Assembly: GCF_024298765.1 (NCBI RefSeq) | Contig: NZ_CP101210.1 | Source: Escherichia coli | Lineage (GTDB): Bacteria > Pseudomonadota > Gammaproteobacteria > Enterobacterales > Enterobacteriaceae | Strand: one strand, 5' to 3' | DNA: 64,000 nucleotides | In this document: piece after piece, positions 58,040-63,488 of the stretch | Numbering within the stretch: the stretch's first letter is position 1 | How the letters are laid out: the number at the start of each line of letters is the position of its first letter | The notes under the pieces: generated by a model | What the model was told of the DNA's origin: nothing | Databases searched by the model: none | The model's input: only the letters and a program-made list of their open reading frames with translations | Made by a program: the position numbers and the translations under genes

Positions 58040-58712
58040 ATTTAATCGTAAGCTCCATCGGCGGCGGCTGACCTGATTTTCCGGTGGGTTTGCCGGATTA
58101 ACCCGGGGAAGGCCTCTGAGTCCGTAACGTTGTTCAGCGACAGGTCAGCGCAGATGATTTCATGTGTTTTACTGTCAACTGCCAGATGCAGCTTACGCCA
58201 TATACGACGGCGTTCCTGGCCATGCTTTTTGACTTTCCACTCGCCTTCACCGAAGACCTTCAGCCCGGTGGAATCAATTACCAGGTGTGCGATTTCACCC
58301 CGGGTGGGCGTTTTGAAACTGATATTAACCGACTTTGCCCGCCTGCTGACACAGCTGTAATCCGGGCAGCGTAGCGGAACGTTCATCAGAGAAAAAATGG
58401 AATCAATAAAGCCCTGCGCAGCGCGCAGGGTCAGCCTGAATACGCGTTTAATGACCAGCACAGTCGTGATGGCAAGGTCAGAATAGCGCTGAGGTCTGCC
58501 TCGTGAAGAAGGTGTTGCTGACTCATACCAGGCCTGAATAGCTTCATCATCCAGCCAGAAAGTTATGGAGCCACGGTTGATGAGGGCTTTATTGTAGGTG
58601 GGCCAGTTGGTGATTTTGAACTTTTGCTTTGCCACGGAACGGTCTGCGTTGTCGGGAAGATACGTGATCTGATCCTTCAACTCAGCAAAAGTTCGATTTA
58701 TTCAACAAAACC
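58040..58712 (-). mobile_element. IS903: IS903, truncated (about 670 of 1057 bp retained)
   Basis: Inverted repeat GATTTATTCAACAAAACC ending at 58712 beside the bla stop; transposase ORF breaks off after ...ADGAYD. Confidence 0.8.
58042..58680 (-). pseudogene. IS903 transposase, C-terminally truncated
   Basis: 212 aa matching the N-terminal two-thirds of IS903 transposase as recalled. Confidence 0.8.
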
Positions 58713-58714
58713 AG

Positions 58715-59590
58715 TTACAGCCCTTCGGCGATGATTCTCGCCGCTGAAGCCAGCACATCGCGGCGGCTCTCTGCGTTCTGTTGCGGCTGGGTAAAATAGG
58801 TCACCAGAACCAGCGGCGCACGACCCTGCGGCCAGATCACCGCAATATCATTGGTGGTGCCGTAGTCGCCGCTGCCGGTCTTATCACCCACAGTCCACGA
58901 CGTCGGTAAGCCGGCCCGAATGCTGGCTGCGCCGGTCGTATTGCCTTTGAGCCACGTCACCAACTGCGCCCGCTGGGTTTCGCCCAGCGCATGACCCAGC
59001 GTAAGCTGACGCAACGTCTGCGCCATCGCCCGCGGCGTGGTGGTGTCTCTCGGGTCGCCGGGAATGGCGGTATTCAGCGTAGGTTCAGTGCGATCCAGAC
59101 GAAACGTCTCATCGCCGATCGCGCGGGCAAAAGCCGTCACGCCTCCCGGGCCACCGAGCTGGGCAATCAATTTGTTCATGGCGGTATTGTCGCTGTACTG
59201 CAACGCGGCCGCGCTCAGTTCTGCCAGCGTCATTGTGCCGTTGACGTGTTTTTCGGCAATCGGATTGTAGTTAACCAGATCGGCAGGCTTGATCTCGACA
59301 GGCTGATTAAGCAGCTGCTTTTGCGTTTCACTCTGCTTAAGCACCGCCGCGGCCGCCATAACTTTACTGGTACTGCACATTGGAAAGCGTTCATCACCGC
59401 GATAAAGCACCTGCGTATTATCTGCGGTATCGATGAGCGCGACGCCCAGCCGCCCTCCGCTGCTTTTCTCCAGCGCCGCCAGCTTTTGCTGCACCGCACT
59501 CGTCTGCGCATAAAGCGGCGCGCTGCCCAGCAGCAGCGGAATGCACGCCGCCGCCGCGAACATCATCCGTTGCACTCTCTTTGTCACCAT
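58715..59590 (-). CDS. blaCTX-M: class A extended-spectrum beta-lactamase CTX-M, CTX-M-9 group (CTX-M-14-like)
   Basis: 291 aa; STSK, SDN, KTG motifs; full match to recalled CTX-M-9-group sequence with V231 and D240 (SGDYG); 42-bp spacer to ISEcp1 end. Confidence 0.9.
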
Positions 59591-59706
59591 CTCAAACTCC
59601 CAATACGGTCAATCCGTGTTACATCAGTATTCCCTAAATTCCACGTGTGTTTTTTATTAGCTTCAAAAATCACTATTTCACGAAGAATTTAGACTGCTTC
59701 TCACAC

Positions 59707-59736
59707 ATTGTAACATTATTTACAACCACCTTTCAA
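59707..59736 (-). promoter_or_regulatory. ISEcp1 outward promoter for blaCTX-M (-35 TTGAAA, -10 TACAAT)
   Basis: Minus strand reads TTGAAA-18 bp-TACAAT between the IS10 insertion and the ISEcp1 right end. Confidence 0.6.
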
Positions 59737-61150: not shown

Positions 61151-61177
61151 CACTCAATTTTATTGATGATATTCTTA

Positions 61178-62440
61178 TTATACCAGACATTTTTCATACA
61201 CTCCCTTGTACGGATAGTTTTCCGACAACTTCATGATTACATATCTTGCGGTTTTGATTATTTTTGCTGCAAGAAATACATACTTCAAACGAAAGGTCTT
61301 TATTTGCTGTCTGTATTCTGAAGAGTCCAAGGAATCAAACTTGAACAACAAAAATAGGTTATATGAAAGCATCATCATTTGAAACACGGCTTCATTCGCC
61401 CAAAATGACTTTAGCAAGAGATGACCCACCGCCATGTCGTATTTGGCTTCTTTGATATAGTTTTCAGCATTACCACGCTTTTCATAGTATATAACTACTT
61501 TTTCAGAAAGCAAGGTAGTATTTGTTACAAAGAAAAAGTAGTCGTATTCGGAACCTTCTAAAAGTGATAATTGTGCTCTTTCTTTTTCTGGTTTCAGTAC
61601 GCGAGATACGACAAATCTTCTGTCTTTTTCCCATTTAACTAATTTTGTATACAGTTCTGTAGTTTCTCTACCTTCTTCTCCTTTAACGAATACAATTGAT
61701 GAATTCGTTGCTTGTGAGGTGAGTGTAGAATAACTTTTGGCTTTAATTAAATATTTGCATCCAAGAGATTCTATCGTTTCGATAATTTTTTCATCAAAGT
61801 AGCCACTATCCATTCGAAATAAAATTTCTAAATCGTCTGATTTGATGTTAGCAACAATTTCTTTGATCATTTCCGCAGCACCGTTTGCAGTGTAAGTATT
61901 GCCACTTCTTACAAATCCGGTAACATATGCTTTTAATTCGTCGCAAAATGCAAATTGGATATTGTAGCATCGGTTTCCCAGTTTCTTAGGATTATATCCT
62001 TTTGACGCACCTTCTTGATGACCTTCTACGTTAATTACACTACTATCAATATCAATCGTAATGGATGTCAATTTACTTTTAGTGAGCAGTTTTTTAAAGA
62101 CTTTAAAATTAATGTCTCTAAACATTTGGGTTGTCTTGAAGTTGAAGTTTCCTAGAAACCGTGACACTGTTTCAGGTTCTTTTACGGAAATATCAAACTC
62201 GTTGACGAGGGGATCATTTTGAAGTAGCTTTAGACGTTCTAACTTATCAATGCCAATGAAGTGACCGCAGAGCATGGTCTTTATATGATTCATCTTGATT
62301 TTATTTGTTGAGTCATTATCAAATACGAGGTCATTTTCAATAAAATCAAAAATCCCATTGCTTTTTGCATTCTCAAGGAGCAGAAAAAGACCTGCATTTG
62401 ATGTTAGATTCTTAGCTTTGAAATCAATTTTATTAATCAT
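61178..62440 (-). CDS. tnpA: ISEcp1 transposase
   Basis: 420-aa ORF matching ISEcp1 transposase as recalled. Confidence 0.9.
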   Translation of the reverse strand: MINKIDFKAKNLTSNAGLFLLLENAKSNGIFDFIENDLVFDNDSTNKIKMNHIKTMLCGHFIGIDKLERLKLLQNDPLVNEFDISVKEPETVSRFLGNFNFKTTQMFRDINFKVFKKLLTKSKLTSITIDIDSSVINVEGHQEGASKGYNPKKLGNRCYNIQFAFCDELKAYVTGFVRSGNTYTANGAAEMIKEIVANIKSDDLEILFRMDSGYFDEKIIETIESLGCKYLIKAKSYSTLTSQATNSSIVFVKGEEGRETTELYTKLVKWEKDRRFVVSRVLKPEKERAQLSLLEGSEYDYFFFVTNTTLLSEKVVIYYEKRGNAENYIKEAKYDMAVGHLLLKSFWANEAVFQMMMLSYNLFLLFKFDSLDSSEYRQQIKTFRLKYVFLAAKIIKTARYVIMKLSENYPYKGVYEKCLV

Positions 62441-62627
62441 AATTAGAACCCCTTTTTACTACTTTTCTTACTATTATTTTACCATATATCGAGTCATAAA
62501 AGCTGATAATTTAACATATTTTTGAGCACTTTTCTTTCACCCAATGGGTGAAAGCTGAATTTCGAAGGAATGCATATTTATCAAGGCTTTGATTATGCTT
62601 TTTGAAGTACTGACGTAGAATCTAGGT

Positions 62628-63488
62628 TTGATTGATATCCTTGTTGAATTACAAAATTATGGCGTGGTCAGTCGCTATAATTTGATGAAAAAATACAACA
62701 TCACTGAGCGAACAGCATATCGTGATCTGAATATGCTTTCTCCCTTTATTGAAGCCTGTGGCGATGGAAAATACCGGCTTATTTCGGCAAGAGCAGGAAA
62801 CCAGAGCAAAGAATCACTGCACAAATCTCTGGCCAGGTTACTGGATACTGATGCGATTTTTCCTGAACGGGATGAAGGTTTCTGGCAGAAATTAGAAAAC
62901 AGGGCAACCGAAAGGCATATTCGTGTTCAGTTTCATAACCCTGAGCACACCATCAGGGATGATTTAAGAAAATATCTTGATGTTCTTGAAAAAGCGATCT
63001 GCAACAGTAATGTTTGCCAGATTGCATATGCCGGTAAGACCAGAATCGTTCATCCCTATAAATTAACTAATCAGAGAGGTATATGGTATTTGCTGGCTAC
63101 TGAAGAGAACAAGTTAAAGTCGTTTTCATTAGCTAAAATAAAATGGCTGGATATAAAAAAAGAAAAGTTTGCAAAGAGTGATGAAATCCAGTCACTGGTA
63201 AGTGAGTCATGTGACCCGTGGGTGAGCGACAAAACATTTGATGTTGTGTTGTTCATTTACAGTAATATCGCCCATTATTTTTTGCGACGGGACTTACTTC
63301 CTTACCAGCAATTGCTACACAAACATGACAATGGCATTACGCTGTCATGCAAGGCTGCACATAAAAATCAAATTGTCCCGTTGATTTTATACTGGCTACC
63401 GAATGTTGAAATTATTGAACCAGTATGGCTGAAAGAAGCCGTGTTAACAATGTTAGGAAAATACCTTACTGCTGAGAATGTTTCCTGA
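62628..63488 (+). pseudogene. WYL-domain transcriptional regulator, 5-prime end removed by ISEcp1 insertion
   Basis: HTH (YNITERTAYRDLNML) and WYL motif (RGIWYLLA); ORF begins 2 bp after the ISEcp1 inverted repeat with no ATG. Confidence 0.6.

Follow-up and report, generated by a model that had tools for sequence, protein, structure and literature searches.

A chromosomal blaCTX-M-14 unit with plasmid-derived passenger DNA, very probably delivered by ISEcp1, splits a WYL regulator gene in Escherichia coli

We analysed a 64-kb window of Escherichia coli DNA (the whole stretch examined, 64,000 nucleotides) in which an extended-spectrum β-lactamase (ESBL) gene lies at 58715-59590 on the minus strand and encodes a 291-residue protein with V231 and D240 (Ambler numbering, counted from the K234-T-G motif). 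The NCBIfam blaCTX-M model NF033089 scores the product at 620.7 bits relative to a cut-off of 570, with coverage of positions 1-291 of 291; the protein is identical at 291 of 291 residues to a full-length PDB chain, and its best match among the named mature PDB chains is CTX-M-14 (1YLT), above CTX-M-9 and CTX-M-27. CTX-M-9 has Ala at position 231, and CTX-M-27 has Gly at position 240. The identical sequence is named CTX-M-14 by both PGAP (WP_001617865.1) and AMRFinder (100%), and A231V is the published difference between CTX-M-9 and CTX-M-14 (PMC4606122). As read from its sequence, the gene is exactly CTX-M-14, a class A enzyme of the CTX-M-9 group; this agrees with the group assignment made in the initial annotation, and the allele check proposed there at positions 231 and 240 points to CTX-M-14.

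A spacer of exactly 42 bp (59591-59632, minus strand) separates the bla start codon from the right inverted repeat (IRR) of ISEcp1, the distance originally counted; this length is typical of the CTX-M-9 group, with a 42-bp region of identical sequence preceding CTX-M-9-cluster genes (PMC4606122). ISEcp1 spans 59633-62626 (1,656 bp after subtracting IS10 and 9 bp), has 14-bp terminal inverted repeats (IRL, ACGTAGAATCTAGG; IRR, ACGTGGAATTTAGG), and is divided into two parts on the minus strand. The right-hand part (59633-59821), delineated from the sequence and a promoter scan, holds IRR (59633-59646), a promoter and one copy of CACTCAATT (59813-59821), while the left-hand part (61151-62626), delineated from the sequence, PGAP and NCBIfam, holds the second copy of CACTCAATT (61151-61159), an intact tnpA (61178-62440, 420 aa) and IRL (62613-62626). 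The tnpA product is named ISEcp1 by PGAP and scores 329.6 on NF033539 (IS1380-type; cut-off 180). IS10 (59822-61150, minus strand, 1,329 bp) lies between the two parts with an intact transposase gene (59835-61043, 402 aa) whose product scores 404.3 on NF033591 (IS4-type; cut-off 152) and carries the PGAP name ISVsa5, an IS10-like element. Its 9-bp target duplication is perfect, and its insertion point is separated by 19 bp from the tnpA stop on one side and by 76 bp from the -35 box of the ISEcp1 promoter on the other, so that both the duplication and the placement of IS10 between transposase gene and outward promoter are borne out as first described.

The ISEcp1 outward promoter (minus strand; -35 TTGAAA at 59736-59731, -10 TACAAT at 59712-59707, 18-nt spacer) is the sole promoter-like site that the scan returns in 59500-59900, and on recount it lies intact between IS10 and the ISEcp1 end, as had been claimed; the two hexamers and the 18-nt spacer are as quoted for the ISEcp1 promoter (PMC9330008). 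We infer that bla is transcribed from this promoter, which would give chromosomally fixed ESBL production.

On the other side of bla, at 58047-58712 on the minus strand, lies a remnant of IS903B (NCBIfam, PGAP). It keeps the inverted repeat nearest to bla and, counted from the start, two thirds of the transposase gene, and its length of 666 out of 1,057 bp is in line with the cut after about 670 bp reported initially. The register is set by the full-length IS903B in CREC-629. Residues 24-212 of the transposase fragment align with positions 1-192 of the 289 of the NCBIfam IS5 transposase profile, PGAP labels the fragment as missing its C-terminus, and the remnant is 100% identical to full IS903B copies beside blaCTX-M-14 from 58712 down to 58045. 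The cut end matches the ISEcp1 IRR at 8 of 14 positions and was probably the surrogate right end of an earlier, shorter unit. Beyond it lie 204 bp of plasmid-derived sequence (57843-58046), made up of TTAAT (58042-58046) and 199 bp of passenger DNA (57843-58041, minus strand) from the IncK1 (IncI-gamma/K1) backbone, which comprise the beginning of a DUF4238 gene, whose start codon lies at 58012, and 29 bp upstream of it and which end in a surrogate right end at 57843. The DUF4238 gene is complete in IncK1 plasmids and runs on there past the point equivalent to 57843. These plasmids carry TTAAT both beside IRL and at this junction, which marks the TTAAT of the window as a fossil, the target duplication left when the shorter unit inserted earlier into an IncK1 plasmid.

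The segment from 57843 to 62626 is bounded by two copies of TTTGA, a 5-bp target-site duplication of the kind made by ISEcp1 transposition, at 57838-57842 on the left and, directly adjoining IRL, at 62627-62631 on the right. Excising 57843-62626 together with one TTTGA restores an empty site with a single TTTGA, and the 868 bp over the restored junction recur with 100% identity in at least 20 chromosomes of E. coli, with 406 genomes covering at least 80% of them; the uninterrupted locus that the initial annotation proposed to seek by genome comparison is thus found. What was interrupted is a plus-strand WYL regulator gene. Its displaced 5' end (57803-57842, codons 1-13, MVDSTRNRSAERL) reads, on translation, into the inserted DNA and stops after 17 aa, while its 3' part (62628-63488) encodes residues 13-298 with the HTH, WYL and WCX regions, is annotated by PGAP as a 286-aa protein with a TTG start, and begins 2 bp past the ISEcp1 IRL. 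Joining 57803-57842 to 62632 onward yields the intact 298-aa protein WP_000228490.1, and an intact 298-aa gene is annotated at the empty site in strain W2-5. The earlier view that the resistance unit interrupted a WYL regulator that had lost its 5' end therefore holds for the interruption but not for the loss, as the 5' end has been moved 4.8 kb away and the gene is split.

Since the segment runs from IRL to a surrogate right end within a 5-bp duplication, and its target exists uninterrupted elsewhere, we are highly confident that 57843-62626 is a single ISEcp1 transposition unit, 4,784 bp long, that derives from an IncK1 plasmid and landed in the chromosomal WYL gene of E. coli. In the orientation of ISEcp1 its order is IRL, tnpA, IS10, promoter, IRR, 42 bp, blaCTX-M-14, 666 bp of IS903B, TTAAT and 199 bp of IncK1 plasmid DNA. 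The terminal 14 bp at 57843 match IRR weakly, at 4 of 14 positions, and weak likeness to IRR is usual for surrogate right ends of ISEcp1.

The composition first proposed, ISEcp1::IS10, bla and a truncated IS903, stops 204 bp of plasmid DNA short of this end, and its left limit of 58040 has to be extended, since the unit and the displaced WYL 5' end reach 57803. One could still suppose that the unit ends at the IS903 cut (about 58040) and that the WYL 5' end was deleted on or after arrival, as IS903B homology does stop at 58045-58047 and the open reading frame beside IRL lacks the first 12 WYL codons. We regard this as refuted, given that no 5-bp duplication surrounds 58047-62626 (TTAAT at 58042-58046 versus TTTGA at IRL), that 57843-58046 is plasmid DNA, that the codons said to be missing exist at 57803-57842, and that the empty site is restored exactly. 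Entry into the chromosome by some route other than one-ended ISEcp1 transposition, such as a composite transposon built from IS10 or IS26, a plasmid that integrated whole, or illegitimate recombination, can draw on an IS10 that is intact and active in the lineage (ECJXMCRH7 has one extra copy 10 kb away) and on cassette rearrangements associated with IS10 and IS26 elsewhere. The segment, however, begins exactly at the ISEcp1 IRL, its outer duplication is 5 bp long rather than the 9 bp of IS10 or the 8 bp of IS26, the single IS10 is internal with a 9-bp duplication of its own, and no further plasmid backbone is present, and we therefore give such routes next to no weight relative to ISEcp1 transposition.

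The span 57843-62628 gives one contiguous match of 99.98% to the IncK1 plasmid pB16EC0481-4 (CP088801.1), in which IS10, the IS903 cut and the DUF4238 junction are identical to those of the window; as this is the sole record found with the whole unit contiguous, we take it as a probable representative of the donor type. The two differ in that the DUF4238 gene of the plasmid goes on beyond 57843, the functional unit there being the shorter one flanked by TTAAT, and in one base that makes a TGA stop in the plasmid and TGG in the window. A second IncK1 plasmid, p15A63 (LC567052.1), has the IS903/DUF4238 site as in CP088801.1. It was considered as an IS10-free unit, i.e., one in which insertion into the plasmid preceded IS10, and was rejected when the alignment showed IS10 together with an IS10-adjacent ISEcp1 deletion (61152-62265); both IncK1 plasmids found already contain IS10. 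The epidemic IncK plasmid pCT was likewise set aside as the donor. The IS903/DUF4238 junction occurs in only 6 of 72,556 plasmid records and pCT is absent among the plasmid matches listed, and for this reason we term the donor IncK1-type rather than pCT.

These relationships suggest a history in three steps, each relying on the ability of the ISEcp1 transposase to act on IRL and a weakly IRR-like downstream sequence, so that the intervening DNA is carried along and 5 bp of target are duplicated, except for the first, in which IS10 would have entered ISEcp1 with duplication of CACTCAATT. A unit ending within IS903B would then have inserted into the IncK1 backbone just upstream of the DUF4238 gene, duplicating TTAAT, and a later transposition would have passed this earlier end by 204 bp and delivered the longer unit to codon 13-14 of the chromosomal WYL gene, duplicating TTTGA. 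We infer the order of the first two steps by parsimony across the other contexts, assuming a single IS10 insertion.

The position, orientation and 9-bp duplication of IS10 are shared with the IncK1 donor-type plasmid and with all other contexts examined, as single pieces of 100% identity. IS10 prefers the hot-spot consensus NGCTNAGCN, and target preferences make repeated insertion at the same site conceivable, in which case IS10 could have entered ISEcp1 independently after the unit reached the chromosome and would be uninformative on ISEcp1 mobility. This shared structure, and a duplicated sequence, CACTCAATT, that is not close to the consensus, leave such late entry very improbable. With IS10 in place before arrival in the chromosome, the question of mobility can be read from other sites: IS10-bearing ISEcp1 units with other right ends are found in btuB (AAGGC), in traK (TGAAC) and near pliG (TATAA), each with its own 5-bp duplication, which together with TTTGA in the window makes at least four separate insertions with differing duplications. 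Because of these units, and with the tnpA and IS10 transposase genes both intact, ISEcp1::IS10 appears to be still mobile, contrary to the initial suggestion that IS10 may have affected ISEcp1 mobility.

An identical chromosomal locus is found in three independent complete genomes of public chicken E. coli and is therefore no assembly artefact, and the exact IS10/ISEcp1 junction is found in 10 complete E. coli genomes and 7 plasmid records. The insertion is present in two different left-flank haplotypes, with the EC17CM2 genome departing from the window sequence left of 56566; because both haplotypes carry it, the lineage of the window may have acquired the insertion from another E. coli by homologous recombination, with no transposition event of its own. 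A search of the 64-kb window for a tRNA gene that might anchor an island found none.

We find no description of an insertion in this WYL gene in the literature searched, and the EC17CM2 strain paper does not mention CTX-M-14 or ISEcp1. An ISEcp1-IS10-blaCTX-M-14-IS903 structure has featured in reviews from 2006 onwards and is listed for Eckert et al. 2006 and GenBank EU136400 (PMC4086240 Table 3); by the order given in that table, IS10 interrupts ISEcp1 upstream of blaCTX-M-14 and IS903 lies downstream, as here, whereas the window differs from the structure as tabulated in the IS903 cut at 666 bp, the 204 bp of IncK1 DNA and the chromosomal site. Gomi et al. 2022 describe chromosomal ISEcp1 units with blaCTX-M of 2.9-11 kb with AT-rich 5-bp duplications (PMC9325909), and the window resembles these in its one-ended ISEcp1 transposition, AT-rich 5-bp duplication and chromosomal target; their units each occupy a different site (PMC9325909), whereas the insertion in the window is shared by three public genomes.

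The 3' part of the WYL gene now lies apart from the promoter, the ribosome-binding site and codons 1-12. As these signals and the residues just before the HTH are lost, the regulator is most likely inactivated by the insertion. The intact protein gives Pfam matches to HTH_11 (12-49, E = 0.0014, weak), WYL (128-184, 8.7e-9) and WCX (216-291, 3.3e-7) and matches PADLOC WYL models at 2.6e-22 and 3.6e-20, an arrangement of N-terminal HTH, central WYL and C-terminal WCX like that of HTH-WYL-WCX regulators of the BrxR, CapW and PafBC group. Downstream are two uncharacterised genes, context outside the mobile unit, the first of which encodes a 359-aa protein (WP_001207396.1) and starts within the window (63538-64000, plus strand), while the other encodes 523 aa. 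The pair matches two PADLOC candidate models, PDC-M09A (for the 359-aa product, E = 3.5e-22) and PDC-M40B, and neither gene has a Pfam domain below E = 0.001. A literature search for these two candidate names found no papers, and an inverted-repeat search gave one weak pair. The candidate matches could hint at WYL repression of an adjacent defence or stress operon. A tentative and, in our judgement, rather unlikely reading is that the insertion disables a WYL repressor of the two downstream genes, which resemble these candidate anti-phage families. If it were true, the gain of an ESBL gene would also alter the phage-defence state of the lineage, with the downstream pair switched on through loss of the repressor or switched off as an operon cut from its promoter. 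As a possible side effect, the orphaned WYL promoter (approximately 57700-57800) would drive transcription into the inserted DNA in the direction antisense to bla.

Because the mechanism, the elements and their order are all documented already, the locus raises no new biological question and is a known kind of mobile element, clinically relevant and biologically ordinary. It provides sequence-level evidence that IS10 between the ISEcp1 transposase gene and IRR does not prevent the mobilisation of bla by ISEcp1. The practical value of the finding is epidemiological: a chromosomal blaCTX-M-14 is stably inherited without the upkeep of a plasmid, and the 204-bp plasmid scar with the TTTGA junction is an exact marker by which the insertion can be followed through poultry E. 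coli in eastern China and back to an IncK1-type donor plasmid.

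Reading the sequence and ORFs of 57000-64000 recovered all elements named in the initial annotation, every one on the minus strand. The resistance gene identified by this ORF reading (58715-59590, minus) encodes a 291-aa product that scores 620.7 bits against a curated cut-off of 570 for the NCBIfam CTX-M model; a PDB chain is identical to it over its full length, and the best-scoring named mature chain is CTX-M-14 (1YLT), with CTX-M-9 and CTX-M-27 behind. Numbering anchored on K234-T-G places Val at 231 and Asp at 240, the CTX-M-14 combination, with A231V separating this allele from CTX-M-9 (PMC4606122), and identical DNA in public records is named CTX-M-14 by both PGAP (WP_001617865.1) and AMRFinderPlus (100%). 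The gene had been placed in the CTX-M-9 group, with residues 231 and 240 to decide the allele, and blaCTX-M-14 agrees with that placement.

IS10 (59822-61150, minus, 1,329 bp) is flanked on each side by CACTCAATT, the perfect 9-bp duplication proposed earlier, and subtracting IS10 and one repeat leaves an ISEcp1 of exactly 1,656 bp. The transposase genes of both ISEcp1 (tnpA, 61178-62440, minus, 420 aa) and IS10 (59835-61043, minus, 402 aa) are intact and score above their family cut-offs. The IS903B remnant (58047-58712, minus), with its terminal repeat at 58712, retains 666 of 1,057 bp, close to the 670 bp first estimated, with the register verified on a full copy in strain CREC-629. The spacer from the right inverted repeat (IRR) of ISEcp1 at 59633 to the bla ATG at 59590 is exactly 42 bp, as initially counted. 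TTGAAA-18 nt-TACAAT at 59736-59707 (minus), the sole promoter-like site within 59500-59900, is the outward promoter published for ISEcp1 (PMC9330008), and a recount places it between IS10 and IRR, at 76 bp from the end of IS10, where it had been expected. Promoter and spacer are both intact in the sequence, and we infer from established ISEcp1 biology that bla is transcribed from this promoter (PMC9330008, PMC9325909). IS10 lies upstream of it, in the same orientation as bla. The outward promoter of IS10 is located such that, in the present orientation, it would face away from bla, and with IS10 also upstream of the ISEcp1 promoter, little effect on bla expression is expected.

The unit does not, as had been thought, end at the IS903 cut. 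A megablast of 57500-64000 against plasmids extended its boundary: the IncK1 (IncI-gamma/K1) plasmid CP088801.1 matches 57843-62628 in a single piece, continuing 204 bp past the cut through the start and upstream region of a DUF4238 gene that in the plasmid runs on beyond 57843. TTAAT adjoins the left inverted repeat (IRL) in CP088801.1 and also stands at the IS903 cut, which indicates that a shorter unit, 58047-62626, once inserted into that plasmid backbone; the copy surviving in the window is at 58042-58046. The outer junctions in the window both carry TTTGA (57838-57842 and 62627-62631), so that the unit entering the chromosome was 57843-62626, or 4,784 bp. These boundaries and duplications are read directly from the sequence. 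The surrogate right end at 57843 matches IRR at only 4 of 14 positions, compared with 8 of 14 matches to IRR for the IS903 end, and the unit probably moved by one-ended transposition using this surrogate, as established ISEcp1 biology would have it (PMC9330008, PMC9325909). A single base differs across the 4.8-kb match between the window and CP088801.1: in the DUF4238 fragment (ORF 57827-58012, minus), a TGG (Trp) codon near 57960 is a TGA stop in the plasmid (L002 4068), because of which the gene has a later annotated start there.

In plasmids the passenger DNA runs on into a complete gene, and the empty chromosomal sites are free of it, so the transfer went from a plasmid into the chromosome. 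The IS903/DUF4238 junction occurs in just 6 of 72,556 plasmid records, and CP088801.1 is the sole donor-type record found among them. Three Klebsiella records were rejected as donor because the match ends at the IS10 end and the left part of ISEcp1 is absent (in pHKU57_3, aac(3)-IId and IS26 occupy its place), a Salmonella record because the match begins only at 57893, and p15A63 because ISEcp1 is partly deleted next to IS10. The element is of an already known kind: ISEcp1-IS10-blaCTX-M-14-IS903 appears in a review of 2012 that cites Eckert et al. 2006 and EU136400 for it (PMC4086240), ISEcp1 interrupted by IS10 is noted too in PMC3316993, and ISEcp1 units flanked by AT-rich 5-bp duplications in chromosomes are well documented (PMC9325909). 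Few records share the exact IS10/ISEcp1 junction (10 of 5,426 complete genomes, 7 of 72,556 plasmids); three complete genomes of chicken E. coli from China contain the exact window locus, and the paper on one of these does not discuss it.

The WYL regulator gene is interrupted, as the initial annotation held, but its 5' end is not lost. An ATG at 57803, upstream of the left TTTGA, opens 13 codons (MVDSTRNRSAERL) whose frame enters the unit and ends after 17 aa. The empty site was rebuilt by joining 57842 to 62632, and an 868-bp stretch over the junction was searched in 5,426 genomes: 20 or more E. coli chromosomes have it at full length and 100% identity, with at least 80% of it covered in 406 genomes. 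The uninterrupted locus sought earlier is thus available, for example in strain W2-5, where the annotation gives an intact regulator of 298 aa, WP_000228490.1, with Pfam matches to HTH_11 (12-49, weak), WYL (128-184) and WCX (216-291). The window ORF corresponds to residues 13-298, its TTG start being L13. Since the insertion separates the gene from its promoter and ribosome-binding site and from the codons for the 12 residues directly before the HTH, the regulator is probably inactive in the window. A perfect palindrome with 6-bp arms, CTGACAAATGATGTCAG, lies at 57733-57749, ~55 bp ahead of the start codon of the WYL gene, and could serve the regulator as an operator. Overall, the initial observation was confirmed and its interpretation partly supported, the unit boundary and the target-gene account needing correction.

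Two genes downstream of the WYL gene, in 63538-64000 and beyond (L003 10371-13068), encode proteins of 359 aa, with a hydrophobic N-terminal stretch, and 523 aa, for which PGAP gives the name 'ATP--cob(I)alamin adenosyltransferase'. No Pfam domains were found in either; they match the PADLOC candidate anti-phage models PDC-M09A (3.5e-22) and PDC-M40B (1.3e-42), and with the WYL gene may form a candidate uncharacterised defence module. The insertion may either derepress or silence the pair. The same unit occupies the same TTTGA site in two distinct island backgrounds. In EC17CM2 the outer-membrane-protein gene has on its left a type I R-M system and an AAA ATPase; the background of the window and ECJXMCRH7 contains the scr sucrose operon together with an H-NS paralogue. 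From 56727 rightwards the window and EC17CM2 do not differ; 56573-56726 holds 12 mismatches, and left of 56566 the two are unrelated. Such differing flanks beside an identical insertion point to recombination nearby. Window 1-5300 and 33977-37226 match, at 87-98%, an EC17CM2 region whose annotation includes genes of CP4-type islands (a cbtA/cbeA toxin-antitoxin pair, radC, an antirestriction gene and yfjI/yfjJ-like genes), which places the resistance unit inside a large mosaic genomic island; the 64-kb window contains no tRNA genes.

Two other sites, btuB on a chromosome (AAGGC duplication) and traK on an IncFIA plasmid (TGAAC), hold a 58250-62626 unit with IS10 at the same position, and a longer IS10-bearing unit near pliG (TATAA) carries a complete IS903B and a TonB-receptor gene fragment. 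If IS10 inserted only once, it would be older than all these transpositions, and ISEcp1::IS10 would have moved at least four times, contrary to the earlier suggestion that IS10 affects ISEcp1 mobility. Such mobility fits the anatomy, since IS10 leaves IRL and tnpA intact and ISEcp1 can dispense with its own IRR. WP5-S17-ESBL-10 (NZ_AP022105.1, 1442901-1451980) has the full unit in btuB and a second ISEcp1(IRL-tnpA)::IS10 piece without bla between truncated yfcU and yfcO fimbrial genes, which suggests IS10-mediated rearrangement. ECJXMCRH7, otherwise 99.99% identical to 46838-64000, has an extra IS10 at 47018-47026 with a 9-bp duplication, absent from the window, which suggests ongoing IS10 transposition in this lineage. 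The IncK1 plasmid p15A63 (LC567052.1; position 7809) carries this cassette at the site it occupies in CP088801.1, with a deletion equivalent to window 61152-62265 that runs from the IS10 end into ISEcp1 and removes most of tnpA, an instance of IS10-adjacent deletion locking the cassette in place.
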